A DNA stretch of 64,000 nucleotides. Source: Elusimicrobiota bacterium. GTDB taxonomy: Bacteria; Elusimicrobiota; Elusimicrobia; UBA1565. The notes beneath the pieces are model-generated. The model was not told the origin of the DNA. It searched no databases and saw only the letters and a program-made list of their open reading frames with translations. How positions within the stretch are numbered: the stretch's first letter is position 1; each line of letters opens with the position of its first letter. The stretch lies in the NCBI GenBank assembly GCA_041661185.1, contig JBAZUV010000004.1:9987-73986 (forward strand). The letters run 5' to 3'. This document shows, one piece after another, positions 4,404 through 59,764 of this stretch. Both the position numbers and the translations under genes were made by a program.

Positions 4404-4450
4404 TAGGAGCGTGTCACCCGATCACGAAAAGGAATTACTCGGACACGATC
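4404..4450. repeat. 46-bp hairpin element (copy 1) abutting the stop codon of the 2405-aa gene; candidate terminator
   Basis: ggagcgtgtcacccgatcacgaaaaggaattactcggacacgatcc has ~10-bp arms (ggagcgtgtc/gacacgatcc). A T-run follows on the transcribed strand (rc ...ctatttttgcc). It is ~85% identical to the copy at 11849-11894. Confidence 0.45.
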
Positions 4451-7400
4451 CTAGTGCATGGAGTGCAGTCGCTCGATGCGCTGGATCGTGTCGGGATGCG
4501 TGACGAAAAGGCGGAAGAAGATATCGTCTCCCGGCCCTACGACCCAGCGGCTGAGCCGGTCGAACTCCAGCTTCCAGCCCGCTCCCCTGAGCTGTTCAAA
4601 GGGATCGACCGTCATCCATGGAGAGCGCGCCGCGATCAACGGCAGTTCCTCGGCTCGGAGTTCGAAATTCTGCGGCTGCCAAGCCGTCAGAAGCCCCAGG
4701 CCCAGCGCGAGCGCGTCAGGATCCCGGGTCAAAAGAGCGCCGTCCTCATCCGCGCCTCCCTCCCGGATGCGCGAGGAACCCATCTGAAGAAGCTGGGCCA
4801 TGATCGGCGCCCAGAGCGCCGCGAACACCTTGAGCACGCCGAAGGCCGCGGCCGCGGAGACCGGCTCCACGGATTCAGGCTTCACTCCCGCCGAAATCTT
4901 GGGATGCTTCACGGCGGAGCTCCGATGCGCCTTGTTTCCGGTCAGGCGCGCCCAGCCCGACTCAATGCTGCCCAAGATCCACAGCACCCAGGAGGCGCTT
5001 AAAGCGACGGCGGCCGTCAGGCTCTCGGAAACGGCGCCGATCACCATATCGCGGTTCATGACATGGCTGAGTTCATGGCCGAGTATCCCGCGCAGGACCC
5101 TCACGCCCAAAGCCTTCAGCTCGGAAGGGGCAGCCTCTGCCACGGCCGCGCGCAGCGCAGCGCTCCCGGTTTGCCGCGAGACTCCGCGGATAGAATCGCT
5201 GATGGCGGAGCGGAACGCGTCGAAGGGGATTCCGGAAGGGTCGGACTGGTCGATCAAGCGCAGGAGGCCGTTCCTCAATCCCTCCGGGTCCAGGAGCATG
5301 CGCTCGATCTCCGGGGTGACGCCCACGACCGCCTTGCTCGGGCTCAGCCCCGCGGCGAAAGCATTAGGCACGTCCATGGGCGCTTCGATGATCTCCGGCA
5401 TGGGAATCGGCTTGCGGCCCTTGGCCTCCAGGCCCTTGTTGATGATGCCTCGAAGCTCCCGCACGACCTGGAACACCTCGGGAGCGTCTTCCTCCGAGAG
5501 GGGACCGGCCTTCATCATCTTCATGATCAGCTTCGGACTGAAATAGACCTGCAGGCCGATGAGCGCGGAAGCCGCGCCCAGATGCGCCAGAAAAGCGGTC
5601 CAGCCGAACACGGTCGCGCTGAGAAGAGCCCCGAAAGCGCCGAGCCCTCCCAATGCCAGAACGGTCTTGAACCAGTAATGATGCTCCGTACGAACCGTCG
5701 GGGCATGCTGGACCGGCTGCTTTGCAGGCTCGGGCCGCGTGGAAGGCGCTGGATTGCCCGCAGGCAGGAGCCGGCCAAGGAGACGCTCCATCCAGACGGC
5801 GGAACGATGAGGAAGGAGCGTCAGCACCGCGAACGTGACCGGCGCGGCGAAACCGGTCGCCGCCGACCAGAGCGCCGCGACCGTGAAGAGCGCGTCGAAG
5901 ACCCGGGTGCGGCCGAAAAGAACCCAGGCGATCACCATGGGAATGATCCCTGCCGGGGAGTAGCCCGTGGCCAGGGCGAAGATCGCTCCAAAAAGCGCCC
6001 AGGAATACTCCGGAAAGCGCATCCCCGGCATCTGGAAAGGCTTCCCGCTCTCAGCGGAGCGGATGACGGCTCCCAGGAAGAACGCGAGCGTGGCCATGGC
6101 CGGGACAGCGGTCAAAGCCGCCAAGCCCGCCGGCGTCAACGACCCGGCCGCTGAAACGCCCATGAGCATCCGAGGAAGCTTGCCGGCCAGCCAGGCAGCG
6201 GCGCTGCCGAGAATGCCCGGCGCTCCTTGGCCGATAAAGGCCTGTCCTGCGGCAGTCGCGGGACCTCCGGCTGTTATCGCCAAAGAAGAAAGCGTCGTGC
6301 CCATAAGCGCGGGCGCGAGAGCCAGAAGCGCGCCGAGGTACGCGCCGATCAGGACATCGAGCGCGAGCTTGACTCCCCCCAAGCGCGGGCTGTCCCTCAG
6401 AAAAAGACGCCAGCGCGCGTAAAGCGCCATGGGCAGGACGAAGACTCCCGGGCTTAAGGCCCAGAACGCGGCCGCGGGAACGATGCCGAAAATAGAAGGA
6501 AGGAACATCACTGCCGCGCCGTGCAGGAGATAGGCCGCCGCGGCCGCGGCCAGGGCCCGCGCCAATGAGAGACGGGCTTCAGCTCCGGGGCTGAGCCTGG
6601 CCGTGGAAACAACAGGCTCCGCCTTGGCCGCGGGCCCGACATGTCCGCCGTGATAAGCCTGGAACTGGAAAGCCTCGGAACGGCCGGGAACCGCTTGGGA
6701 AACAGGCGCAAGCGCATCGCGCAGGTCCGCGTCATCCAAGAGCGCGGAACGATCCGGGAGCAGGCCTTGCAAGAAGCGAGTCGTGGACTCGGGGCCTGAA
6801 TCGGCCAGCAGATGGACATTGGACAACCGCGGGTCCGCGGACTCGCCTACGGCCAGAGCCGTTGCCCGCGGCAGAGCCCGGGCCATAGCGGCATCCTGGC
6901 CCCGGGGACCGAAATCATCGCCGAAGATCAGGATGTCTTTCCGGGAGATGAGCTTCTGCTTCTGCGCCAGCCAAAAGATTTCGCGCGCCCCTCCCCCTTT
7001 GTCGGCGCGCGCCACCCAGATCTCAGGCGCGCCGCGTCCCTGCGCAGGATAGCTGAGCACCACGCGATAATCCAGGGGATAGCCCGCCGCCAGGAACGCG
7101 GGAGAGAACGCCTCATAGAGCCGCAGGACCTTCTGGTCGTCGTACCAGTCTTCGTCGGTCATCTTCAAGGCGCGGGCATGCTCCTTGAGCAACGCCTCGA
7201 TGCGCAGAGCCTCCGGGCCCTTGTCCGCGGGCCTTGAAAGGACCGGCCCTCGCGGCCGCTCGCCGCCGGCCCCGTACTGATAGAGCTCCGCCCCTCCGTC
7301 CGTGGACAAGATCATGCCGGCCCGGACGTCCGGCGGCAAGCGGTCCATGAGCAGGCTCGAAAGCCCCCAGCCCCCGCCCGTGAGCGGACGATTGCTGGCG

Positions 7401-11668: not shown

Positions 11669-11848
11669 GGCATCCCTTGGAACGGTTCGCGCAATAGACG
11701 TTCAGGCGCGCGCGTACGCTAACAAATGAAACCGTGAAACAATCAGGTCCAGGGTGCCTGATTTTGGCGGGCGAAAAGTCCTACATCCTATAGGTCTGAT
11801 GACCCAATTTGAGAGGCCTTTCCGTGTGGAGAAAATATCTCGAATTCA

Positions 11849-11894
11849 GGAGCGTGTCACCAGATCACGACAAAGGATTATTCAGACACGCTCC
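11849..11894. repeat. 46-bp hairpin element (copy 2), overlapping the last codons and stop of the amidase gene
   Basis: ggagcgtgtcaccagatcacgacaaaggattattcagacacgctcc has the same arms as the 4404-4450 copy; the amidase stop codon lies inside the loop. Confidence 0.45.
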
Positions 11895-13830
11895 TGGCGG
11901 CTTTGCGCTCGGCGGGATCCGTCAATTGGAGATTCCGGTAGGCGTCATAATATCCGCGGAGTCCCTCGACCAAGGTCTTGGCGAAGCGGTCCTGCCAGAC
12001 AGGGTCCAAGAGCATCTCCTCCTGCTCGGGCAGCATCACATACGCGGACTCCGTGAGCACCGCGGGCATCTGCGGAATGCGGCAGACCGCGAGATCTCCC
12101 CAGCGCAGAGCATCGTCGAAAAGCGGGATGTCCTTGCGGTGAGCGGCCTGCATGGACTCGGCCAGGAACCGGCTCTGCGGATGATAGTAGAGCATCATGA
12201 ATCCGCGGGGCGCCTCGAAGGGGTCGTCGCTCGCGCCCAAGGCATTGTGATGGATGCTCACCAGCACGTCGCCCTTGGCATCCCACGCCAAGGCCGGCCG
12301 CTCCGTGAGCGCGGGCCCCGCGGAACTCGCGCGCGTGAGGTAAACCTGCGCGCCCTCGGCCTCCAGCAGGGCTTTGACCCGGAAGGCCGTTTCGAGGTTC
12401 ACGTCTTGCTCCTCGGTGCCCAAAGGGCCGAGTCCGCCGTGATCCGGCCCGTGCCCGGGGTCCAAGACCACGCGCCGCCCCTTCAAGACCTTGTCGGAGG
12501 CCGTCAGGTCCGGAGCCCGACGGATATCGAAGAGGAATCGCCCCTTCTCGTAGCGGGCATCATAGCCCGCGCTCCAGCGGATGCGCGTGCGCACGGTCAT
12601 GAGCACGGTCTGGGAATCCTCCTGCCGCCAGACCACCTCGCGGATGATGGGATCGTCGGAAGCATAGCGCAGGCGGTCGATGCGCTGATAGGCGCCGAAG
12701 AAGCGGATCTCGAATTCCAAGGGATCGAGCCGATGCGTCACGGAGAACGGCACGGGCCGCTCCACGGACACGGCCAGGCGCACGGAATCGGAAGACACGG
12801 AGGTGTTCAGATATCGGCCGATGAGGCCGCTGGGCGGCGCGGCGCCCTCGGGCAGCATGCGCACCTGCCCCGGGTCCACCCAGGCGTCATAGCCCGGAGC
12901 CAAGGATACTCGCAAACGGTCTCCAGAACGCCCGGTGACCGCGAGCTGGACCCCGGGAGGGATGAGGATATCGTATCCTCCGGCCAAGGTCTTGAGGATG
13001 GTGCTTCTCGCGGTGCTGATCGCGGTCTCATAAGCCTGCGGGTCCAGGATGCTCACGCGTCCCTGCGCATGCTCCGACCAGGAGCCTGCCTTGCAATGCA
13101 AGGAGACCTTCACGCGATGAGACTTGCCGTGAGCAGAGTCGCCCACGCGCCAGCGCCCGTCGTAGATCCCCGGGCTCGTTTCAAAGAGCGGCATGCCTTC
13201 GACGAGGTCTTCGACGCTGAAGTTCGCTTCCCCGCCCGCAGGCCCCTTGGCCCGGACGGCGACCCAATCGCCTGAGCGGACCCACTGGCTCTCGCGCGGC
13301 TCCAGGACCGCGATGCCGGATGTCCGGGCCTCCTCCGGTCCGTCCACGAGGACATTGCGCGCGAGCGAAGCCGAAGCCCCCGCGCGTTCGGCCAGAAAAT
13401 GAAGGACGAACGCGCCGCTGGAAAAATCCACCATGGACAAGAATGCTCCGTTGCCGCGCACGGGCAGGGAGATCCCGTTGACGGTCAGCGTGGAGCCGGG
13501 AGTGACGCTGCCGAACGCGAAAGCTCGCTTCAAAAAAGGATAGCGCATCCCTTCCTCGGGCCAAACCACGCGCAGTTCAGGAGCCGCTGCGGCTGGAGCG
13601 ACGGCCGTACCAGCGCTCGACACAGCGACAACAACGGCGCTCGATGTCTCAACAGAAGCCGTGACCGTAGACACGGCCTGCACCGTTGTCGTTGAGGAAA
13701 CATTCTGCGGGACCCGCATACCAGCGGGGAGTGCCGCATCCGAAGTTTGTTGGGACGCGGCCTGCGCCCGCGCCGGAGCGCATGCGAGCGCGAGCGCTGC
13801 GAAAAGCCAGCCTGCCGTCTGGAAATTCAT
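11878..13830 (-). CDS. N-acetylmuramoyl-L-alanine amidase (Amidase_3, AmiC-like) with N-terminal signal peptide and beta-rich targeting domains
   Basis: Catalytic domain motifs are VVLDPGHGPDHGG, EEQDVNLETAFRVKALLE and VLVSIHHNAL. The signal peptide is MNFQTAGWLFAALALACAPARA, from the ATG at 13830; the ORF runs to 13878. Confidence 0.85.
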   Translation of the reverse strand: MNFQTAGWLFAALALACAPARAQAASQQTSDAALPAGMRVPQNVSSTTTVQAVSTVTASVETSSAVVVAVSSAGTAVAPAAAAPELRVVWPEEGMRYPFLKRAFAFGSVTPGSTLTVNGISLPVRGNGAFLSMVDFSSGAFVLHFLAERAGASASLARNVLVDGPEEARTSGIAVLEPRESQWVRSGDWVAVRAKGPAGGEANFSVEDLVEGMPLFETSPGIYDGRWRVGDSAHGKSHRVKVSLHCKAGSWSEHAQGRVSILDPQAYETAISTARSTILKTLAGGYDILIPPGVQLAVTGRSGDRLRVSLAPGYDAWVDPGQVRMLPEGAAPPSGLIGRYLNTSVSSDSVRLAVSVERPVPFSVTHRLDPLEFEIRFFGAYQRIDRLRYASDDPIIREVVWRQEDSQTVLMTVRTRIRWSAGYDARYEKGRFLFDIRRAPDLTASDKVLKGRRVVLDPGHGPDHGGLGPLGTEEQDVNLETAFRVKALLEAEGAQVYLTRASSAGPALTERPALAWDAKGDVLVSIHHNALGASDDPFEAPRGFMMLYYHPQSRFLAESMQAAHRKDIPLFDDALRWGDLAVCRIPQMPAVLTESAYVMLPEQEEMLLDPVWQDRFAKTLVEGLRGYYDAYRNLQLTDPAERKAARSVSE

Positions 13831-14432: not shown

Positions 14433-14512
14433 GGTGCCAGGCGTCAACTTGATTGAAATTCAACTTGCTCGGCCGAGCAAGTTGAATTTCAATCAAGTTG
14501 ACGCCTGGCACC
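14433..14512. repeat. 80-bp perfect palindromic element (copy 1) with GGTGCCAGG / CCTGGCACC termini
   Basis: ggtgccaggcgtcaacttgattgaaattcaacttgctcgg|ccgagcaagttgaatttcaatcaagttgacgcctggcacc is exactly self-complementary and identical to 59681-59760. It lies between the pseudouridine synthase and the kinase genes. Confidence 0.8.
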
Positions 14513-18800: not shown

Positions 18801-21800
18801 GCGCTTGAAGCGGCCGTCCAATGCCGGCCCCACCGAAGAGTAGAACGCGGTCTCCGGTACGCCGTCGTCGAGGCTTTTGGCCGCGGCGCCCACGTCGATC
18901 ATGTTCCGGGCGTTGGCGGGCTGGCTCAAGGTCTTATTGAACGGACCCGCGTTCCCGCTCGATCCCGTGCCGATGAGCGGCTCCCCGGAAGCGCTCTTCT
19001 GCTCCAAGAGATGCGAGAAAAACTCAGCCAAGGGCGCATCGCTGTCCCCGGGACTGCCGAGGCTGACGCTGACGACGTCCGAACCCCACTTCATGGCATC
19101 CACGGCCGCGGCCATGATGTCGCCGTCGGAAGCGCCCTGCCCGGCCTGGGAGAAGACCTTGCCCATGCGTCCCTCGGCCGCGGGCGCCATGCCCTTGTAA
19201 AGAGGCCCGTTGGCATAGGAGATGCCGGCCTTATGCGTGCCGTGCCCGCTCCAATCCTCGGGTCCCTCGCCCACGAAATCGATGCACTGCAGGATGCGGT
19301 CCGCGAAATCAGGATGCGTCACATCGAGCCCGGTGTCGATATCGTAGATGCGTCCGCCTTCGCCCCGGATGCGGAGCTTCCAGACCGGCACGACGTCCTG
19401 GATGATCCCGCTCTCGAGGAGCTGGACGCGGTAGCCTCCGCGGGAAGCTCCGAAGCGCACGCCGCGCGCGCCGGAAAGCCGCTTGAGCACCTTCGAGTAG
19501 GCCTTGAGCACGCTGACATAGATGCGGTTGTCTCCCACGTCCCGGCCGAAGACATGTCGGACCCGCAAGCCCGCCTGGACGAAGCGCGCGCGCTCCTGGT
19601 CGTTGAAGCCGAAGGAGCGCAGAAGATCGTCCTGGGCCGGCGCGGAAGGGTCCGTATCGAGGTTGAGCTGCGAATGAGGAAGGCTCACCCCTTTGGCGGG
19701 AGTCAGCCACAGGTTCAGGCGCGGCTCCATCTTTCGCGCCACGATCACGTGCCCGCCCTCGGCAAGGTCCACGCGCTGGACCTGGAACTCGCCGTTGTCC
19801 GAGGAAGTCCAGAACCGGAAAACCCTTTCGACCAGCGCGACTCCGGGATCGGAGGAATGGAAAGGAAGGAGCACGATCCCATGGTCCTGCAGCCCCGCGT
19901 ACAAAGCCTGCAAATAGTCTGCCAGGCCCACGTCCTGGAGCTGGGTCCCGGAGAACTCGTTCATCATCTTGTTCAAGGCCGCGGAGACTCCCTCGACCGA
20001 TCCATTGCCCCCCACATGCACTCCGATGTTGTCGCCCAGAGTCTTCAATCGCAGAGCCAGCGGCCCGCCGGACTTGAACCCTTCGCGCGAGCTCGAGCGG
20101 TTGCGCTGTTCGAGCCGATAGGCCTCGTCGATGGAGCGCAGGGCCTGCTCAAGCCGTCGGTTCTCCGCGGAGTCCTCCAAAGGCAAGGAGAGATGGACGT
20201 TCGGGAGCACGATCACCCGGTAGCGGCCGGCATGCTCGGGCGCCTGGAGGAGCCTCTTGAGCTCCGAAGGCTCCACGCGGGCGTTCTCCCGGGATGCGAA
20301 CCCGGTCATGTCCGCAGGATCGGCGACCACGAGCCCTTTCTCCGGCAGACCGGTATAAAGACCCCGCACGCGCGCCCGTCCCTCGGAGAGCACGTCATAG
20401 GCCGAGGGGTTCAGGAGCTCCGAGCTGGAAGGCTCGACGATGAGCACGGGATAAGGAGCCCCCAGACGCAGGGAGACCTGCGCCTCCTTCAAGACGCGTT
20501 CGAGCACCGGGATGCGCAAGGACTTGAGCCACTGCCGGCTGTGCCATTCCCCGGCGCGGGCCAAGGCCTCGTCGCTCAGTCCGCGGAAGAATCCCCCGAG
20601 TCCCTTGCTGCGCCGAGCCAAGGGTTCGCGCCGGCCGTTCTGCAGATAATGCCCCATCTCGTGCTTGAGCACGGCCTGGAAGAGCCCGGGCGCGCGCGCA
20701 AGCTCGGGCCGCAGATAGATCGCATCGCCCTGCGACACGCCGAAAGCGAAACCGGAGAAGCGCCCCCTCTGCGGCCGGTAGATCCGCAGGATGCCGCGGC
20801 CGGGAGCGTATCCCAGCAATCCGGAGATCACGCTCGGATGCAGGCCCATCTCCAGGAGCTGGGCTTTGGCGAAATCCCAGAACTCGCGGTCCGAGATATC
20901 GGCCCGAAAGAAAACAGCCCAAGAGAACACGGCAAGGTCATAGAGCGCCCAGCCTGAGAAGACCGCGCCCATCACCCCCGCGGCCGCCATCGTGACCCGC
21001 AAAGGCTCCGCGAACGCGGCAAGAGCCTCCACCAGCCAGGGGGAGTGGATCAGCGCCGCATGCGCAAGGACCCAGCCGGACCCAAAGAACACGGCTGCGG
21101 CCGTTATGAAAACCGCGGCCGACAACGCCGCCAGCACCGCCGGGAACAGCACTCTGCGATACCGGATCTCCTGCTGCGCGGACTTCCGAGCCGCAAGCGC
21201 CGGGACCTGCCCGGAAGTCCGGCCCGCGCCTACAACTCCGTCATCCCGGTCCACGTCTACAACTCCGTCATCCCGGCTGACGACAGCGCCCTGCTCGTCA
21301 TTCCGGCGAAAGCCGGAATCCAGGATAAGGCTGGACCCCGGGTCAAGCCCGGGGTGACGACGGCCGACTGCACCCCGCCCTTCGCCGGGAGTCTGAATCT
21401 CCAGACCCCCTGCTTGGCCAAGTTCTCCTTGCCCGCCGAGACGGCGCGTGAAATCCTCGGCCGCGGCCTGCTGGGAAGCTTCGATCCCTCCATCCGCAGC
21501 CTGATCCAAGAATGAAGACGGCCCGCGCAGAGCCTTCCATAAACGCCCGGCTCCGCGGACGAACAAACGCACGACCCCTTTGCTCGCTTCATCCTTGCGG
21601 CCAACTTCGTCATCTCTGCTCGCGTCTACAACTCCGTCATCCCGGCGAAAGCCGGGACCCAGCAGTAGCCTGGACCCCGGGTCAAGCCCGGGGTGACGAG
21701 AGTAAAGGGTCTTGCCATTCACTGCGCCGGAAGCTTCCTGCTTATCGGGAAAGATCTCCATCTTTGGGACATCCACAGATACGCCCACGCCTGAACCCGC

Positions 21801-23314: not shown

Positions 23315-23346
23315 GCCTTAGCGTTCATCACAAGTTCTTTTTCTTT

Positions 23347-23470
23347 CGTCATCCCGGCGAAAACCGGGACCCAGCCATCCGTCTCCCCGGCGAAAGCCGG
23401 GGTCCAGCTGATCCTAGATCCCGGCTTCCGCCGGGATGACGGCCTTACCGGCTCTCGCCGGAATGACGGG
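23347..23470. repeat. GC-rich GNRA-hairpin cluster 4
   Basis: gtcatcccggcgaaaaccgggacccag, ccccggcgaaagccggggtccag, ccggcttccgccgggatgac, ctctcgccggaatgac. Confidence 0.6.
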
Positions 23471-23802
23471 ATGCATGCGGACATCAGCGGGGAAGGGATG
23501 CGGGCCGGCTCCGGTCCGTCTGCCAAAGGAAGGCGCGTCTATCCGAACGGCACTGCAGGGACACCCGAGGGCGCAGGAGCAGCTCCAGCGAAGCCCAACG
23601 CGGGAAAGCCGCGCTCTGCTGTCCTTTTTTTCCGTGTTTTCTCATATTTTCTCCGATGGCCGACACCTGCCTGCCATCACTGCTATTATAAAGGGACCGG
23701 CGCCATCATGCCTGTGCCGCCGGACCCACCCCCCTCGAAGCAAAGGACCCAGCCCCACCCACCCCAAAAGACCCATACGGACCCGCCTCCAGCATAAGAC
23801 AA

Positions 23803-24537: not shown

Positions 24538-24582
24538 TCTTCCCCCCTATCCAACGCGTACGATACAAAAAAATCAACACGC

Positions 24583-24645
24583 CGTCATCCCGGCGGAAGC
24601 CGGGACCCAGCAGTTGCCTGGACCCCGGCTTTCGCCGGGGTGACG
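24583..24645. repeat. GC-rich GNRA-hairpin cluster 5 (inverted pair)
   Basis: gtcatcccggcggaagccgggacccag-cagttgc-ctggaccccggctttcgccggggtgac. Confidence 0.6.
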
Positions 24646-24658
24646 ATGACGCGCCGCA

Positions 24659-29233: not shown

Positions 29234-29656
29234 TTAGGAGCCTGTCGGGCCGGTGGCGTCGATGTCCAACTCGATGCCTCCGCAGACGGAACTGAAGGCG
29301 TTATAGAGCGCCGCCACCACGAGGATAAGCGCGTCCATGAGCACCATATAAAGGACGGTGAATAGCAGCGTGGAGAGCAGCTTATAGCCGAAGGACATGC
29401 CGACCGTGTTCACGTTGGGCATGAGCACGAAGGTGACCAGCCCGCCGAAAAAACCCAGGCAGCCCAACACGCCCGTGAGCACCGGCTTGGCGGCCATGAT
29501 CACTCCGACGGACATGAGCACCGCGCCGCCCGCGGCCACCGGCAGGATCCCCCGAGCATAGCCGAACGCAGCGGCCAAGGCGCCGATGACTCCAAGTCCG
29601 ATGACCACGGGCCCCGGCTTCCAGAACGGATCGATCCTGCGGATGTGATAGCTCAT
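29234..29656 (-). CDS. Small integral membrane protein (4 predicted TM)
   Basis: 140 aa of hydrophobic helices (VVIGLGVIGALAAAF..., LTGVLGCLGFFGGLVTFVL..., LILVVAALYNAF). Confidence 0.55.
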   Translation of the reverse strand: MSYHIRRIDPFWKPGPVVIGLGVIGALAAAFGYARGILPVAAGGAVLMSVGVIMAAKPVLTGVLGCLGFFGGLVTFVLMPNVNTVGMSFGYKLLSTLLFTVLYMVLMDALILVVAALYNAFSSVCGGIELDIDATGPTGS

Positions 29657-29744
29657 CGTCCCTCCAAAAACTGAAAATAGCGCGTCCTACCCATGTTTTT
29701 TAGCAGTTAATCGCCTTTTTCGCAAGTAGAAAGGCTCTCGACAT

Positions 29745-29896
29745 CACCCACTTTTTCCGGCGGGTCCTGGAGCCGAGGGGAAACACCCTCCCTTCCCCCG
29801 CGCCCCTGGGAACTGGTTCCCCCCAAGCCGTGGGGCCCCCTTCACGGGAGCTGGAGGGTGTTTCCCCTCGGCTCCACCCGCCGTTTTCATTGGGTG
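29745..29896. repeat. MITE-like structured element, copy A (TIR cgacatcaccc / gggtgatgtcg; conserved core cttcccccgcgcccctgggaac..gttcccc...ggggccccc.tcacgggagc)
   Basis: It shares its architecture and core with 50156-50347 and 50456-50650. The inner stem ggagccgaggggaaacaccctcc / ggagggtgtttcccctcggctcc covaries with the other copies. Confidence 0.65.
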
Positions 29897-30005
29897 ATGT
29901 CGATTTGTGTGCGTGGGTAATACCCAAGGAAGGCCGCAGCTTTGGAGGTTCTTCTTCCCCGTTGAAAAGAGGCCTGGACTCCCGACATCGCCGAGCAACG
30001 AGACA

Positions 30006-31649
30006 TCACCGGATAGGCACGGCGGTCTCCAGGGCCCAGAAGGCGAAGGCTGGACTCTCTCTGCGGAGCGCGAGCCGCCGCACGCCGAAGCGGCGCAATC
30101 GCCCTGCGACCGAGGAGACCGCCTGAGGCTCCCTCAAGGTCACGACCACATCCGTCCTGCGGTCGATCTTCTTGAGCTGCTCAATGAGGACGACGCCGCC
30201 CGTTATCTCCGAACGGGGGATCCCGGTGCGCAGGGACTTATAATGAGGATCCGAATAAAGCCAGATGGGCGGACGTATCCACCACTGCATCGGGCCGCTG
30301 GCCCCGTCGGAAGCCACGATCAGGCGGCTGTTCTCGTCCTGGACGGCGGCGATGTCCTCGGGCGCGGCGAAGTTCCCCTCTTGGATGAGCGCCTCCAGCC
30401 GAAAACTCTCCCAGGCCGAAACCGCCATAAGGAAAAGAAGCCCAAGTACTATCCGCAGCCTCCATGCCCGAGAATCGATCCAACGCGACCGGAAAGCCTC
30501 CAGGGTCCCCGCGAGCAGCAGCACATAGCCGAGTCCGATGTACCATTGGTGATAATGGTGGCTGAAGCTGAGATTGCGGAACACCGTGATCCACGCCAGC
30601 CCGGAGAAAAGAGAGATCCCGCCGAGCGCCGCCAAAGGCGTCCGCAAAAAACGCCGCGCTCCCGCGCACCAGCCAAGGACAAGGACCGCCAAAAGCGCCA
30701 TGCCCGTCCGGGAGAAATTCATGCCCAAGAACCCCCACTGGCTCTTCATCCAGCCCAGCAAGGTCAGAGCGCTCATATCTTTGTTCATGCGGTAGAGCGC
30801 CTGGCTCTGCGCGACCTTCCCGCTGAACCCCAGGTGGTAGAGTATCCAAACGTTCAGCAGCATGCTGACGACGCCGACCGCCAGGAGGCCGTACAGGAAT
30901 CTCCGGTCCTCGCGCGGCCGGGTCGAGAACAGGTACGCCCAAAGTCCGACGCCCACGGCGTAAACCGCCCACTCGGCCTGAAAGAGCAAGAAGAACGCCG
31001 CCAAGAAAGCGATCCTCCGGAGCCGGCTCCCATCGAGTCTCATGGCCAGGCAATAGTTGAGCAAGACCACGAACGTCGCCACGATCTCGTGCTTCCAGGC
31101 ATCCTGATAATTGAAGTTCAGCGGCAAAACGACATAAAGGAAGGTCAGCGCCGCCGAAAGCTCCACGCTGCCCAGAACGCCGCGCAGCAGCAGGAAAAGA
31201 AGGACCGTGATCCCCATTGAGAAGAGCAGCGCGAAGCTCCGCGGGACCCAATGCTCGAAGCCCGCCGCGCCCGCATACGCCCTATAGAGCGTCGAGGCCA
31301 AGACCGGATGATGCGAGTAATGCTGCAGCCCAGTCTCCCGCCCGGACTCATCGTACGCATACCGAGTAAGCCCGAACACCTTCCAAGGATCCGACACCGC
31401 CGGATCCAAGGAATGCATCGCCATCAGCGTAAAATAAGCGTCATCCGCCGTCCAATGCGCCCGCCCCTCAAGGAATGGCTTATTGATCCGCGGCAACGAG
31501 ATGAGCAGCTGCAGGAACACTATTCCCGCGACAAACAGAACCCCTCGATGCCTTGAGATTTTTTCAATCACATCGGATGCCCATTCACTTGAGATGATAC
31601 AAGGCATAGCCGTCCTGCCCTGCCGCCCGAAGCTCCAGCCCATATCCAT
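30006..31649 (-). CDS. Polytopic membrane glycosyltransferase (PMT_2/ArnT-like, GT39/GT83-type); start uncertain
   Basis: 547 aa with ~11 TM helices, a periplasmic loop after TM1 carrying DDAYF, and a C-terminal soluble domain. The ORF start overlaps the upstream gene by 65 nt, so an internal start is likely. Confidence 0.55.
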   Translation of the reverse strand: MDMGWSFGRQGRTAMPCIISSEWASDVIEKISRHRGVLFVAGIVFLQLLISLPRINKPFLEGRAHWTADDAYFTLMAMHSLDPAVSDPWKVFGLTRYAYDESGRETGLQHYSHHPVLASTLYRAYAGAAGFEHWVPRSFALLFSMGITVLLFLLLRGVLGSVELSAALTFLYVVLPLNFNYQDAWKHEIVATFVVLLNYCLAMRLDGSRLRRIAFLAAFFLLFQAEWAVYAVGVGLWAYLFSTRPREDRRFLYGLLAVGVVSMLLNVWILYHLGFSGKVAQSQALYRMNKDMSALTLLGWMKSQWGFLGMNFSRTGMALLAVLVLGWCAGARRFLRTPLAALGGISLFSGLAWITVFRNLSFSHHYHQWYIGLGYVLLLAGTLEAFRSRWIDSRAWRLRIVLGLLFLMAVSAWESFRLEALIQEGNFAAPEDIAAVQDENSRLIVASDGASGPMQWWIRPPIWLYSDPHYKSLRTGIPRSEITGGVVLIEQLKKIDRRTDVVVTLREPQAVSSVAGRLRRFGVRRLALRRESPAFAFWALETAVPIR

Positions 31650-38364: not shown

Positions 38365-38382
38365 CCTACGTTCCTTCTTTTT

Positions 38383-38490
38383 CGTCACCCCGGGCTTGAC
38401 CCGGGGGCCAGGAGCACGGCCAAACGACTTCCCCTGGATCCCGGCTTCCGCCGGGATGACGAATTTATGGGCTTTCGCCGGGATGACGAG
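38383..38490. repeat. GC-rich hairpin cluster 6
   Basis: gtcaccccgggcttgacccggggg, ctggatcccggcttccgccgggatgac, gggctttcgccgggatgac. Confidence 0.6.
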
Positions 38491-47963: not shown

Positions 47964-48176
47964 GACACAGGTTCTACGCACACAAGAGAGTTTAATATCA
48001 GCCCTTTTCTGATTTGTTGATTCGCTGTTAAAAAGATGTTGCGCCGGCCCGTTCCTGAGGCCTGTCTGAATAATGGTATCAGCGCTCATAGGCTCGGGCA
48101 TGGGCCCTTCTGCTCACCCCTCCCCCGCCATAGGACCCACCAGAACCTAGGACCAAAGACTATCTGGTGCCTATCT

Positions 48177-48246
48177 GGTGCCAGGGGTCATTTTGTTCGC
48201 GTAACTTTCCGCGGAAAGTTACGCGAACAAAATGACCCCTGGCACC
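48177..48246. repeat. 70-bp perfect palindromic element sharing GGTGCCAGG / CCTGGCACC termini with the 80-bp elements
   Basis: ggtgccaggggtcattttgttcgcgtaactttccgcgg|aaagttacgcgaacaaaatgacccctggcacc is preceded by the tandem duplication ctatctggtgc-ctatctggtgc. Confidence 0.75.
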
Positions 48247-48247
48247 A

Positions 48248-50092
48248 TCAGCGAAGGAGGAAGCGTTTTAGGCTGGAGGACTGCTCGCCGGGGGCGGGGG
48301 CGGCCAAGGCCCAGAGTTCGAGATTCGAGCGCCCGTTCTCAACGGGAGCGAACACGAAGGAAAGGCTCTGCAAAGCCGAGGTGAAGGGGGCGTTCTTGGA
48401 CTGGACGAAGATCTTGCCTTCCAGGCGGAGCACGAGCAATTCGCGCGTCTTGGCGTCGTAGACCCAGAGCTCGCCGTTGTGCCAAGCCATGGCCCCGGGC
48501 ACAAGCTCGCGGTCCGAGTGATAATCCTCGGTCGCGGAATCCGCGCCTTCGCCCAAGTGCCGATAGAAGACGCGCGTGACCGCGTCATAGGACCAGAGAT
48601 TCTTGCCGTCGTGCGCGAGCGCCGTGGGCGCGGGCCCGGGCGTGGGCCAGACGTAGCGGATATCCGAGGGTTTGCCGAGCGCATGGCGCACGATGCGGCT
48701 CTGCGCGGAGTCGAGAGAATACATGCCGTCTCCTGAGAGCGCGAGCGCGGACGGATGATAGCTCCCCTCGGGCCGGACCTTGAAGCGTTCGATCACGCGC
48801 GAAGGATCGGCCGGATCGAGCAGCAGGAACTCCCCGTTCCAGTCGCAGACCCACAAGAGCGAGCCGTCATAAGCCATGGCCGTGGGCGTCGTGGAGGACA
48901 AAATCATCGACGAGATCGGCTTGACCGAAAGCAGGCGGCGCCATCGCATGACCGGGAACCAGGCTCCTGCCAGGACTCCTGCGATCAAGACTCCGGCGAT
49001 GATCGCGCGCCAAGGCCTGGCCGGCGCGCGCACGACTTCCACGGCCGGCGCAAGCGCCGCAGACGCCGCCGCAGGAGCAGACGCGGGCATGAAACGGCTG
49101 GAGGCATCGCGCATCCAGCTCGCGATGCGCTCTCCGGCCTCGGAGGACTTGCGCAAAGCCTCGGCCATCTGCGTGGCGTAGCGCGTCTCCCGGGACTCGA
49201 CATCCTGGAGCTGCGTGTGCCAGGTCTCGCGCTCCTTGCGAAGGCGCTCCTCCCAAGAGGTGAACTCCTGGCGCTGGGCCTCCCACGTGGAGCGCTCGCG
49301 ATCCCAGAGCTCCTGCCACTGCTTGCGCTCCTCCTGCCAGACATTCTCCATGCGCTGGAGACGATCCTCGGCCTCGCCCAGCCGCTTGACGGCTTCGGCG
49401 CGGGCCGTCTCGGCGGCCTCTCGGTCATGGCGCTCCTGCAGGAGTTCGGACAAGGTCTTCTCGACTACGCCCTTGGCCTGCTTGAGGTCCGCAGCGTCCT
49501 TGCGCGACTGCTCCTGCTGTCCGCCGCAGGAACGCTCCGCGCGCTCGGTTGACGAACGCAGTTCCTGCAGATCCAAAAGGTATTGCTGTTCCCGCTCGTT
49601 GAACTGCCGCTCCAACTCGCGAAAGCGCCCGGCCTCGGCGGCCAAACGCGCATGCGCCTGCTCGGCCATGGCGCGCAGGGTGCTGCGCTCCTCGTCGAAG
49701 CGCGCCTCCTGGGCCTTGAAGGCCTTCTGCGCCTGTTCGAGCTGCACGGAAAGATCGAAGGTCTTCTGATAGACGACGGAGTCGTCGCGCTGGGCCCTGC
49801 GCCGCAAGGCCGTGAGCTCCTGCTCGGATGAAGCGAGCCTCTCGCGCAGCTCGCGCAAAGCCAGCTCCTTGGCGTCGACGAGCCGGCGGAAATCATCGAG
49901 GCGGCCGCGATGCCGATTCTTCATCCACTCGAAGGTCTCCATGGAGACCTCGCTGGTGATGGAGGGTTCCTCAAAGGACGCGGGCATGCCCAAGGACGGC
50001 GCGCTCATGCCAGGGGCCTCCGGCATCCCGGAGGTCACGCGCGACCAGAGCCCGTCGAGCTCTTTCTGGAGGTCGTCCGAATTCATAGGCAT
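48248..50092 (-). CDS. Bitopic membrane protein: cytoplasmic coiled-coil (~330 aa), one TM, periplasmic beta-propeller-like repeats
   Basis: Long heptad-rich segments (LRELRERLASSEQELTALRRRAQ...), TM AIIAGVLIAGVLAGAWFPV, and C-terminal repeats with W/Y-x-YD (LLWVCDWNGEFLLLD, LWSYDAVTRVFYRH, LWVYDAKTRELLVL). Confidence 0.6.
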   Translation of the reverse strand: MPMNSDDLQKELDGLWSRVTSGMPEAPGMSAPSLGMPASFEEPSITSEVSMETFEWMKNRHRGRLDDFRRLVDAKELALRELRERLASSEQELTALRRRAQRDDSVVYQKTFDLSVQLEQAQKAFKAQEARFDEERSTLRAMAEQAHARLAAEAGRFRELERQFNEREQQYLLDLQELRSSTERAERSCGGQQEQSRKDAADLKQAKGVVEKTLSELLQERHDREAAETARAEAVKRLGEAEDRLQRMENVWQEERKQWQELWDRERSTWEAQRQEFTSWEERLRKERETWHTQLQDVESRETRYATQMAEALRKSSEAGERIASWMRDASSRFMPASAPAAASAALAPAVEVVRAPARPWRAIIAGVLIAGVLAGAWFPVMRWRRLLSVKPISSMILSSTTPTAMAYDGSLLWVCDWNGEFLLLDPADPSRVIERFKVRPEGSYHPSALALSGDGMYSLDSAQSRIVRHALGKPSDIRYVWPTPGPAPTALAHDGKNLWSYDAVTRVFYRHLGEGADSATEDYHSDRELVPGAMAWHNGELWVYDAKTRELLVLRLEGKIFVQSKNAPFTSALQSLSFVFAPVENGRSNLELWALAAPAPGEQSSSLKRFLLR

Positions 50093-50155
50093 AGAAGCAT
50101 CCCGAAAAAAGAGTAACAGGCTTCCTCAGGATTTCTATGAAGGAATTGTTGCGGC

Positions 50156-50347
50156 TCGACCTCGCCCATTTTTCCTGACGGGTGGAGCAGAGGGAGAAGT
50201 CCCTCCCTTCCCCCGCGCCCCTGGGAACTCCGTTCCCCCCGATCCCGTCGTTGGAGCGATCCGGGACCCATTGGGGCCCCCCTCCACGGGAGCGGGAGGG
50301 ACTCCTCCCTCTGCTCCACCCTCCGTTTCTTAGGGCGAGGTCGAATT
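50156..50347. repeat. MITE-like structured element, copy B (forward)
   Basis: TIR ctcgacctcgcccat / agggcgaggtcgaa, the same conserved core as copy A, and an inner stem ggagcagagggagaagtccctcc / ggagggactcctccctctgctcc. Confidence 0.65.
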
Positions 50348-50455
50348 TTGATGCGTGAAGTGGACTCAAGGAAAGCCGGTGCTGAAACTTCCGTATCCCC
50401 GGGTGCTGGAAACGGCTTGACTGAGGCTTTCCTCAACGAACAGCCCCTATCTCCA

Positions 50456-50650
50456 GACTCGACCTCACCCATCAGAACAGCGGGAGGCGCGCAGGGGATG
50501 CACTCTCCCGCTCCCGTAGAGGGGGGCCCCGCCATCGCCCGAATTGCTCACACCGCGGGTTTGGGGGGAACTGGTTCCCAGGGGTGCGGGGGAAGGGAGA
50601 GTGCATCCACTGAGCGTCGGGTCCCGCCAGAAAAATGGGTGAGGTCGAGG
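50456..50650. repeat. MITE-like structured element, copy C (reverse orientation)
   Basis: Its reverse complement aligns to copies A/B: ctcgacctcacccatttttctggcggg...cttcccccgcacccctgggaaccagttcccccc...ggggcccccctctacgggagcggg...gggtgaggtcgag. The inner stem gatgcactctcc/ggagagtgcatc is compensatory. Confidence 0.65.
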
Positions 50651-52060
50651 TTAACGCCGCTGCAGGCGCTGGTACTCGAGATTGGCCTCGCCGAGGTCCA
50701 CTTCCGTTCCCTTGTAGTCGGCCAGGATGCGCTTGAGGCGCTCGGCCAGCACCAGTTCGGACGCGCCCTGAAGCTTGAGGTCCTGATAGGCGCGCCAATC
50801 ATCGGAGAACCTGAGCTTCACATCCGCCCGGCGCAGGCGTTCCTGCTCCTCCTGCATCTTCTCAAGCTTGCGCTGGGCCTCGACCCGGCGCCGCTCCATG
50901 GCCTTGAGTTGGATCTCCCGCTCCAAAAGCCTGGCCCTGAGTTCAGCCTCTCCCCGACCCGCGGCATCCTCCGCGGACTGCTTGCGCAGGGCTTCCATCT
51001 CCTCGCGCAGGAGCTTGAGCTCCTCGGCCAGGCGCCACTGCTTGAGCTCCGCGGATTCCAAGGCCTTGCCCAGCTCCCGGCGGGAAGACATCTCGGATTT
51101 AAGCAGGGTCTCGTACTCCGTCTCCGGGTTCCAGGAGCCGAAGCGCCAGCTCATGCTCACGACATGGCTCCAGCGCGTGCCGCTCGAAAGCGGGATGCGC
51201 AGGGCATAATCCACTCGCGCGCCCAGACGCTTGAATCCCGCGCCCAAGCTCCAGGAGCGCGCCAAGCCTCCGAGCGTGAGTCCGCTCCTGGCCAGGAAGG
51301 TGCCGAAGCCCGCGGTGCTCCAGGAGCACTCGCTGGCCAAGGTCGCGGCATAGGCCGTACGCCGGCCCGAGGAAGGCTCTCTGCCCGCCCAGTCCATGAG
51401 GACCTTGTAGCGCCGGACCTGCTGGGCGAAACCGAAACGCATGGTGAGCGGCGCTCGGTCCGGGATCCCGGGAAGATCCAGGCGCGGAGCATTCAGATTG
51501 AGGAAGGAGAGTCCCAAGGAACGATCATCGGAAAGCTTAAGAGAAAAACCCAGGTCCCCGGCCGCGCGGGTCAAGCCTCCTCCCGTTCTTCGCCCCGAGC
51601 GGGAAAGCCCTCGGACGCCCACGCCCAGGTTCAGTATCGCGGGCCCGATCTCGCGCCAGTTGCGCGTGCCGTAGGCAAAGCCGAACTGCCGGTCCAAGGC
51701 CGTGTTCCCCAGGATATCGTGGGTCCAGTAGGCGGCTAAGCCGCCTTCGAGCGGCCCATGGAGCTGGGTCCCGGCCGCAGCAGTCATGCCCTCCATGTCC
51801 GTCTCCGCGGCCGCGGCATGGAAAAGCCTTCGCGCCGAGAGCTCCACGTCCGTGCGTTCCAGGGAGCCGGCCGCGGCCGGATTGATGGACACGACCTCGG
51901 CATCGTCGGATAGAGCCGTCACCGCGTCGCCCAATCCGGCCGCGCGCGCGCCCAAACCCACGTCCTCGAAAGCCGCCCGCGCGGGCGCAGCAGCAGAGAG
52001 GAACGCAGCCATGAGTCCAAGTCTGATGTCCATTCCCCGCCGGCTCTTGATAAGACTCAT
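50651..52060 (-). CDS. Outer-membrane beta-barrel-like protein (same N-terminal motif family as 43588-44568) with C-terminal coiled-coil extension
   Basis: Signal peptide, then GLGARAAGLGDAVTALSDDAEVVSINPAAAG, and a ~130-aa Glu/Arg-rich heptad tail (LRKQSAEDAAGRGEAELRARLLEREIQLKAMERRRVEAQRKLEKMQEEQERLRR). Confidence 0.6.
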   Translation of the reverse strand: MSLIKSRRGMDIRLGLMAAFLSAAAPARAAFEDVGLGARAAGLGDAVTALSDDAEVVSINPAAAGSLERTDVELSARRLFHAAAAETDMEGMTAAAGTQLHGPLEGGLAAYWTHDILGNTALDRQFGFAYGTRNWREIGPAILNLGVGVRGLSRSGRRTGGGLTRAAGDLGFSLKLSDDRSLGLSFLNLNAPRLDLPGIPDRAPLTMRFGFAQQVRRYKVLMDWAGREPSSGRRTAYAATLASECSWSTAGFGTFLARSGLTLGGLARSWSLGAGFKRLGARVDYALRIPLSSGTRWSHVVSMSWRFGSWNPETEYETLLKSEMSSRRELGKALESAELKQWRLAEELKLLREEMEALRKQSAEDAAGRGEAELRARLLEREIQLKAMERRRVEAQRKLEKMQEEQERLRRADVKLRFSDDWRAYQDLKLQGASELVLAERLKRILADYKGTEVDLGEANLEYQRLQRR

Positions 52061-57492: not shown

Positions 57493-57556
57493 GAAGCCAT
57501 TGTATTCGAGCCCAGCTATGAAGTCAACGACATTGACGCCAGGCGTCAACTGCGAG

Positions 57557-57665
57557 TCGTCATCCCGGCGAAAGCCGGGACCCAGGGACTGCCGTTCTGC
57601 CGTGATCCTGGATTCCGGCTTCCGCCGGAATGACGGCTGTAGGCTTCAGCCGGAATGACGTAACG
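57557..57665. repeat. GC-rich GNRA-hairpin cluster 7, flanked by fragments of the GGTGCCAGG palindromic family (57533-57551, 57680-57697)
   Basis: gtcatcccggcgaaagccgggacccagg, ctggattccggcttccgccggaatgac, cttcagccggaatgac. Nearby lie ttgacgccaggcgtcaa and gtgacgcctggcacc. Confidence 0.6.
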
Positions 57666-59664: not shown

Positions 59665-59680
59665 AAGAAACCCCCTATTC

Positions 59681-59760
59681 GGTGCCAGGCGTCAACTTGA
59701 TTGAAATTCAACTTGCTCGGCCGAGCAAGTTGAATTTCAATCAAGTTGACGCCTGGCACC
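59681..59760. repeat. 80-bp perfect palindromic element (copy 2), identical to 14433-14512
   Basis: It exactly fills the gap between the purA start and the neighbouring gene's stop. Confidence 0.8.
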
Positions 59761-59764
59761 GGGA

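Follow-up and report, generated by a model that had tools for sequence, protein, structure and literature searches.

Among the described systems closest to the locus analysed here, QMITE2 of Coxiella burnetii has DRs of 7-9 bp, TIRs of 23-29 bp and a core of 113-145 bp, with a Delta G of about -113 (PMC10969869). The Correia elements of Neisseria (CREE/NEMIS) are 100-155 bp long, carry 26-bp TIRs, are flanked by a TA duplication and form promoters from their own ends (PMC2649163, PMC3184786), and RNase III processing as well as mRNA stabilisation have been described for both Correia and REP elements (PMC2649163, PMC3184786). REPINs and BIMEs are built from REP units of 20-40 nt, are moved by a RAYT and leave no target-site duplication (PMC3116915, PMC2817692). 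The insertion sequences IS5 and IS1 insert into destabilised DNA upstream of promoters, as at bgl, fucAO and flhDC, and at SIDD sites (PMC5493358, PMC11043490). A search of the full-text literature for Elusimicrobia together with miniature inverted-repeat returned nothing but a general insertion-sequence survey.

Here we describe a new, previously undescribed MITE family, one composite unit of which lies in the window, i.e., the whole 64-kb stretch of DNA that was analysed. This unit consists of a hairpin (B), a spacer and an inverted hairpin (C), and very likely represents a composite non-autonomous DNA transposon of a family specific to one uncultured Elusimicrobiota lineage. The family resembles the QMITE2-type bacterial MITEs in its size class, its non-coding nature, its TIRs, the 8-9 bp duplications at three of its units and its intergenic position, often just 3' of an ORF, and the energies of its hairpins (-104 to -125 kcal/mol) are comparable. 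Unlike QMITE2, with which it has no sequence relationship, it is confined to the Elusimicrobiota lineage, a fixed tail-to-tail pair is common in it, and it is the inner stem that changes from one subfamily to the next, the core being nearly invariant. It shares with the Correia elements the inverted repeats around a conserved core, the many gene-adjacent copies, the predicted hairpin transcripts and the proximity to promoters; in contrast to Correia, the -35 and -10 boxes lie wholly in the unique host flank, 8-18 nt beyond the element.

The unit occupies most of a 558-nt intergenic region (50093-50650) that is flanked by two minus-strand ORFs (Table 1). An earlier note, made from the sequence of this stretch, had placed two MITE-like copies in opposite orientation within this one region, and its coordinates were right to 1-2 nt; the coordinates, the alignment and the orientation given by a profile all agree with that arrangement. 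After C was reverse-complemented, which had been set beforehand as a refuting check, B and C aligned with 70% identity, and the alignment of both with a third copy, A (29737-29904), has a mean column identity of 79%. An nhmmer profile built from 21 copies found exactly A, B and C in the window (E-values of 1e-39 to 1e-57), each in a clear orientation (133-191 bits forward vs 26-28 bits reverse), and the terminal motif CTCGACCTCRCCCAT occurred five times with at most 2 mismatches, against 0.44 expected. The hairpin C had been said to end exactly at the stop codon of the upstream gene; this holds to within 1-2 nt, with a single base intervening between the last base of C (50649) and the codon. 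The labels attached to the flanking genes, 'coiled-coil/propeller' and 'OMP-like', found no confirmation: neither protein reaches a Pfam threshold, and the hints (one homologue named YvrE, another with PF08450, and a sub-threshold match to FadL/UPF0164) are sub-threshold or second-hand. Homologues of the 614-aa protein carry the names of Elusimicrobiota / Elusimicrobia MAG proteins. One homologue (P0001), 100% identical, is recorded on a 247-kb JGI contig, and a second contig also carries the 614-aa protein.

Table 1. Positions in the window of the probable composite unit, its parts, its neighbours and the third family member.
Feature	Position	Strand	Remarks
Upstream gene	50651-52060	-	469 aa
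TAA stop codon of the upstream 469-aa gene	50651-50653	-	1 nt from outer end of C
Probable composite mobile unit of ~495 bp, made up of B, the spacer and the inverted C	50155..50649	.	Whole-unit homology, recurrence, absence in relatives
Hairpin C, subfamily with inner stem CGCGCAGGGGATGCACTCTCCC	50458..50649	-	Alignment, fold, profile
C outer terminal inverted repeat CTCGACCTCACCCA (- strand)	50636..50649	-	Partner 50458-50471
C copy of the conserved core block	50563-50599	-	
110-nt spacer, palindromic (AAGGAAAGCC...GGCTTTCCT)	50348..50457	.	Overlap of the two hairpin tails, arranged tail to tail
Hairpin B, subfamily with inner stem GGAGCAGAGGGAGAAGTCCCTCCC	50155..50347	+	Alignment, fold, profile
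B conserved asymmetric core block CTCCCTTCCCCCGCGCCCCTGGGAAC..GTTCCCCC, with invariant palindrome GGGAACnnGTTCCC	50203..50239	+	
B outer terminal inverted repeat CTCGACCTCGCCCA	50155..50168	+	Partner 50334-50347
Candidate sigma-70 promoter of the 614-aa gene	50110..50137	-	TAGAAA (50137-50132), 16 nt, TACTCT (50115-50110), TG just upstream
Downstream gene	48248-50092	-	614 aa
Family member A: hairpin of 168 nt (29737-29904) with a tail of ~100 nt, at whose end is a truncated partner terminus (CCCGACATCGCCGAG...)	29737..30006	+	

The family was collected with a 21-nt core pattern, and part of the invariance of the core is forced thereby. In the JGI metagenomes there were 28 occurrences of this pattern, distributed over 24 stretches and about 20 contigs, all of them from sample Ga0172379. 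The family numbers at least 30 copies in Ga0172379, and the window has 3. Since the Ga0172379 contigs have the same G+C content as the window (63-64%) and also carry its two other repeat families, they derive from a close relative. Many of these contigs break within the element, as expected of a high-copy repeat. Searching one genome each of 185,579 species with the core pattern yielded no true copy; the sole match there (L001) was set aside as a chance match, as neither the termini nor the remainder of the element accompany it. Two scans of viral contigs with the same pattern gave no match.

The tail-to-tail pair was found at no fewer than four further loci in Ga0172379. All five core-matched pairs are arranged + then -, with their right ends facing, and in four of them the two core matches together span about 384-387 nt, measured start to end (469 nt in the wider pair, L010); three more pairs, in which one partner is a 146-nt hairpin, have the same layout. 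As a whole, the pair in the window is 91% identical to L026:500-1002 over 503 bp although the flanks of the two are unrelated, and L004 and L011 match the window unit at about 91% over 451-453 bp, covering B, the spacer and most of C. The recurrent paired layout and the 91% match to L026 despite unrelated flanks indicate that B and C are two arms of one ~495-bp composite, rather than separate arrivals. The description of the locus as two separate facing copies thus gives way to one recurrent composite unit, B, spacer and C, that moves whole. The nearest copies of B are L004a (92.9%) and L011a (90.4%), and those of C are L026a and L013 (92.7% each). A recent transposition, one of the possibilities in the earlier note, is not apparent from these values: B and C share just 70% identity, against 89-93% between each of them and its nearest copies elsewhere, and no duplication flanks the pair.

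The partner arm of the three additional pairs is a hairpin variant of about 146 nt (L009:295-440, L014:1834-1979 and L017:563-708), which has the termini and subterminal sequence of the 190-nt element but another stem and core (…GGGATGGAGCCCCTCTTCCCGC…). The family is modular, in that the ends are common and the interiors exchangeable. The copy A in the window is 94.7% identical to L017, where the same hairpin-plus-tail unit lies at a different locus, and it fills the gap from the 5' region of the ORF 29234-29656 (-) to the stop codon of the ORF 30006-31649 (-). One further copy (L003:10590-10960) is rearranged or nested: about 200 nt of structured but unrelated sequence interrupt its core behind GTTCCC, and a type-b tail comes next in reverse complement.

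A single module spans 168-195 bp. It begins and ends with terminal inverted repeats of 13-14 bp (CTCGACCTCACCCA / TGGGTGAGGTCGAG), within which follow a T-rich bulge with a variable subterminal stretch, a long inner stem and an asymmetric core. The core comprises two nearly invariant blocks, CTCCCTTCCCCCGCRCCCCTGGGAAC-nn-GTTCCCCCC and GGGGCCCCCCTCYACGGGAGCGGGAG, around a variable small hairpin that is missing in subfamily A, and to the right of the hairpin there is a conserved tail of two types, both with AAGGAAGGYC. Among the 21 copies the mean pairwise identity was 90.7% for the termini, 92-94% for the core blocks (a value that the 21-nt search pattern forces in part), 71% for the inner stem, 61% for the core loop and 55% for the subterminal part. 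Many MITEs usually conserve the stem over the core, and the opposite is the case here. The higher conservation of the core (92-94%) than of the inner stem (71%) hints that the core may have a function of its own, with the search pattern explaining part of the difference. On its reverse strand, the core of B (50203-50232) reads GGGGCGCGGGGGAAGGGAGGG, with four G-runs and loops of 3, 2 and 1 nt, which by eye is a G-quadruplex motif of canonical form; the fourth run of C, GGGGGG, lies 12 nt 5' of the other three (by eye), and the same block is present in all copies.

All three hairpins in the window fold better than any of 200 shuffled sequences (B, -120.5 kcal/mol, z -8.8; C, -108.7 kcal/mol, z -6.6; A, -113.7 kcal/mol, z -10.4). 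RNAalifold placed 53 pairs on the 21-copy alignment, and 97.2% of the stem cells show standard pairing, a value that fell to 42-57% in a control in which the partners were slid by 1-3 columns. Double-sided changes, with almost no G-U, occurred at 18 pairs, a number reached by 0 of 500 shuffles. Of the 27 pairs of the main helix, 15 are compensatory and none shows one-sided variation; among the changes are AU<->UA and CG<->GC swaps, for which no wobble intermediate exists. The inner stem sequence differs between subfamilies with its complementarity kept, and because the copies fall into about four stem subfamilies, the number of independent compensatory events is small. Judged from the alignment, this pattern points to a palindrome kept at the DNA level (or in both strands, or by copying one arm from the other) better than to a one-strand RNA gene. 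The complement of the alignment strand folds about 15 kcal/mol better in 21 of 21 copies, as the core is G-rich on that strand. This fold bias was not taken as a sign of selection on a one-strand RNA, since copies lie in both orientations relative to the neighbouring genes.

Known structured RNA families gave no explanation of the hairpins. The whole window had no match to Rfam (Rfam 15) at the gathering score, and relaxing the search to E-values up to 5 over 50050-50700 returned miRNA-precursor-type hairpins only, at 13-26 bits against cut-offs of 45-160, so that nothing real emerged in either mode. A reading frame within the element was likewise dismissed as a sign of coding. A stop-free frame is present in every copy, as is expected at ~70% G+C, and the indels between subfamilies (1 nt and 22-26 nt) shift the reading frame, making a conserved ORF unlikely.

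Evidence for mobility comes from the sequences abutting the ends of the element. Perfect duplications were found directly at the ends of a solo hairpin in L013 (ACGAGTAG), of the pair in L004 (CCTTGAAT) and of the pair in L014, which joins a 190-nt and a 146-nt hairpin (TTGGATTTT). These duplications are 8-9 bp long, and they occur in just 3 of about 12 testable units; at a fixed position, each would arise by chance with a probability of about 1.5e-5. None was detected at L011, at L026, at copy A or at the pair in the window, the window copies having been searched for exact matches of at least 7 nt and by eye. A near-duplication at the tail end of L019 (ATGAAAAAGG vs ATGAGAAAGG), noticed by eye, was discarded as not significant after multiple testing. 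The 64-kb window and about 170 kb of related loci contained no cognate transposase and no full-length parent IS with matching ends (CTCGACCTCACCC). Additional matches to the terminal motif were considered as traces of a parent IS and rejected, being chance matches in coding sequence or truncated copies, none of which encloses an ORF.

The duplications also bear on a different kind of mobility, in which a REP/BIME- or REPIN-type element, or a palindrome derived from IS200/IS605, is moved as a single-stranded hairpin by a RAYT (Y1). The long hairpins with compensatory stem changes, the recurrent inverted doublets and the intergenic position are as in REPINs (PMC3116915), the subfamilies within one genome and the substitutions that preserve the hairpin are a further likeness to REPINs and BIMEs, and the scarcity of G-U intermediates would fit recognition of a hairpin at the DNA level. 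Against it stand the perfect duplications at three units and the build of the element, a module of about 190 bp with true terminal inverted repeats instead of a REP of 20-40 nt with a conserved GTAG head. To our knowledge, Y1 transposases produce no target-site duplications of the 8-9 bp kind, and we regard movement of this type as highly improbable. A retron msr-msd was also considered and rejected. Such a locus combines a structured ncRNA and flanking inverted repeats with an adjacent reverse-transcriptase gene, and is usually present in single copy; here the flanking genes have no RT domain and have orthologues in element-free relatives, and there are dozens of copies with duplications.

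As the earlier note had proposed, the orthologous intergenic regions of two relatives, L027 (63% identical orthologue) and L028 (56% identical orthologue), were compared. Both relatives keep the local gene order, which in full in L028 is S41 peptidase, TsaD, 470 aa, 600 aa and a FlgD_ig protein. The intergenic region measures 104 nt in L027 and 118 nt in L028, as compared to 558 nt in the window, and the element is absent from both; the unit is therefore an insertion, which is what the synteny check had been meant to establish, and the second refuting condition of the earlier note, an unchanged sequence in the relatives, does not hold. No empty site turned up within the same species. With its terminal inverted repeats, the 8-9 bp duplications elsewhere, its many copies, the missing conserved ORF and its absence from two relatives, the description MITE-like is also sustained. 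The part of the intergenic region outside the element comes to 63 nt, vs the 104-118 nt of the relatives. An adjacent deletion or later decay would fit both this short remainder and the missing duplication at the window pair.

From the signature of terminal inverted repeats and duplications alone, we infer a DDE-type mechanism with mobilisation in trans. A transposase supplied in trans would recognise the outer ends and insert either a solo module or the pair, with a staggered cut of 8-9 bp at the site of insertion. Two modules joined tail to tail around a spacer of about 110 nt would make up the unit of ~495 bp, whose outer ends are identical (equivalent). In the window, the pair entered a short intergenic region between tandem genes, where it is bounded on one side by the stop codon of the 469-aa gene and on the other by the upstream edge of the 614-aa gene's promoter; both were left intact, and any effect on the neighbouring genes is presumably incidental. 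The MITE family explains the oversized intergenic region as well as the contig breaks in assemblies of this lineage.

Next to this transposon reading, we weighed a role at the RNA level. The pair would then be retained because it terminates or insulates transcription between the two co-directional genes, as the earlier note had put forward, or because it stabilises the 3' end of the upstream mRNA or offers a processing site to RNase III. An intrinsic terminator consists of a G+C-rich hairpin directly followed by a U-tract. No U-tract directly follows hairpin B or C on either strand, and a terminator scan of both strands from 49950 to 50800 found none (nor any promoter above the threshold of the tool), as did scans around the copies in L013, L015 and L023. 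As judged from the sequence, a terminator or insulator role is unsupported. The position of the unit speaks for an RNA role, as C begins 1 nt after the stop codon, between two minus-strand genes, and a read-through RNA would hold both hairpins. This transcript of 561 nt folds at -329.8 kcal/mol (z -13.6), and in its minimum-energy fold C pairs with B to form one giant foldback, which by analogy could protect the 3' end of the upstream mRNA, be cut by RNase III or hinder read-through; precedents exist in the Correia and REP/BIME elements (PMC2649163, PMC3184786). In addition, with gene orientation judged by GC3, seven of eight complete units lie in tandem intergenic regions with a stop codon on one side and a promoter on the other. 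Nevertheless, the changes in the stems are almost all Watson-Crick, with no one-sided G-U in the main helix, and copies are found in either orientation with respect to transcription, both of which suit a palindrome in DNA better than an RNA from one strand. The relatives, moreover, manage without the element in 104-118 nt. Taken together, we consider it unlikely that the pair is retained for such an RNA role.

In the complete units, the distance from a stop codon to one end is usually 0-22 nt (up to 63 nt), and a promoter begins shortly beyond the opposite end. At the window locus, the outer end of B is 17 nt upstream of the -35 box of the candidate promoter of the 614-aa gene (Table 1), which scores 8 of 12 and is thus weak and under the threshold of the scan tool. 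The arrangement GCAACAATTCCTTCA-TAGAAA-16-TACTCT in the window has counterparts in the same intergenic region of L027 (TAGAAA-16-TATAAT, preceded by AACAAA) and L028 (TTGAAA-17-TAAACT, preceded by GTAACAAT), and a motif of the AACAA(T/A) type before the promoter is common to all three. Across the family, a consensus sigma-70 promoter (at least 9 of 12.5 on our own scale), facing outwards and beginning at a distance of 5-20 nt, was present at 12 of 33 outer ends, and TTG at flank positions 12-16 at 15 of 33. The corresponding frequencies in random 80-nt windows of the same DNA were 0.56% and 5.4%. At the ends of two other repeat families the counts were 0 of 11 and 0 of 24, the latter being a REP-like family that forms arrays, so that its ends are not strictly comparable. 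The promoters of the family are consensus matches, none of them mapped, and the scan tool confirmed TTGACA-17-TACAAT in L015 and TTGACA-17-TATACT in L023. From the first residues, we take the genes driven by the promoters near the ends to be infC, mraZ, a clpC-like gene, a tRNA, a pilin-like gene and satP; the copies in L008 and L018 adjoin what we read as tRNA genes, each with a consensus promoter before it. Since these genes are unrelated and the promoter spacers are not conserved between copies, the promoters belong to the host and lie outside the element. At the left end in L022 (L022:2746), the element ends about 19 nt upstream of an ATG start, and with only this distance to the ATG the promoter of that gene must lie inside or beyond the element.

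These counts raise the possibility, which would add to the transposon reading, that the element is promoter-associated or homes to promoters, having been inserted or retained at a fixed spot upstream of the sigma-70 -35 box, in the UP-element zone. The transposase or its target capture could read AT-rich or bent DNA upstream of promoters, or a TTGAC-like pseudo-end; otherwise, the element could be useful in that place, for example through insulation from upstream read-through or through a protein-binding core. The excess of promoters (12 of 33 ends) over random DNA and the other repeats, the excess of TTG, the confirmed promoters at L015 and L023 with their unrelated downstream genes, and the recurrence in L027 of the TAGAAA box that lies 17 nt from B all speak for a preferred position. 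So does the fact that the arm turned towards the promoter is not always the same one, as the window and L026 differ in this respect. However, the intergenic regions are compact, and selection against the disruption of genes and promoters could by itself force this position. Outside the element, only about 11-30 nt separate the stop codon from the -35 box in L013, the window, L011 and L026 (about 3-21 nt once a duplicated target is subtracted), so that almost any tolerated insertion would land there and purifying selection is a plausible cause. Furthermore, the first 9 flank bases are only 56% AT, the REP-like control is limited by its arrays, the promoter in the window is weak, and all promoters here are consensus matches. 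The control with other repeat families favours target choice and the compactness favours purifying selection, and we regard promoter homing as possible, but tentatively so.

A more elaborate proposal is that the element homes to, or is selectively kept at, a distance of about 8-18 bp upstream of the -35 box, usually after a stop codon, and that its nearly invariant core (GGGAACnnGTTCCC with the G/C-run blocks), in a stem that is free in sequence but strictly complementary, is a functional DNA or RNA module and not mere filler. Such a module would be a putative boundary or insulator element, or a protein-binding site; we hold this proposal as a whole to be doubtful. The non-random landing upstream of promoters is a likeness to the IS5 and IS1 cases. 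Those elements are autonomous and activate silent operons, and their insertions lie at a small number of loci selected under stress, with distances that vary; in contrast, the present elements are a MITE family found, through targeting or selection, 8-18 nt from the -35 box of strong consensus promoters of unrelated genes. If true, a bacterial mobile element that targets promoters would be loosely like the Ty elements at Pol III genes. Provided that the promoter spacing reflects real targeting, the family would be a natural system for studying how transposons recognise promoter-upstream DNA and a ready promoter marker in an uncultured phylum, and if the spacing reflects selection in compact intergenic regions alone, it is routine selfish DNA. 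Overall, the composite is ordinary selfish DNA, save that the ends of the family tend to lie a fixed dozen bases upstream of promoters.

The window contains other repeats besides this transposon family. A second family consists of perfect palindromes with the termini (T)GGTGCCAGGSGTCA, at 48176-48247, 14433-14512 and 59680-59761. The two 80-nt copies, 45 kb apart, are 99-100% identical, and the terminal motif (at most 3 mismatches) occurs 15 times in the window and also in the Ga0172379 loci. A third copy, of 72 nt, directly separates the 1178-aa gene from the 614-aa gene, and with this palindrome on one side and the B/C unit on the other, the 614-aa gene has repeats on both sides. REP-like stem-loop arrays (GTCATCCCGGCGAAAGCCGGGAYCCAG and relatives) were found at 771-946, 21206-21702, 23345-23493, 24581-24647, 38373-38489 and 57556-57637; they alternate in orientation, with a BIME-like organisation, and are separate from the B/C family. 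Finally, a 48-nt direct repeat (4405-4452 and 11848-11895) is 85% identical between its two copies and has internal dyad symmetry, AGGAGCGTGTCACCCGATCACGAAAAGGAATTACTCGGACACGATCCT, and could be an operator-like site or another small repeat.
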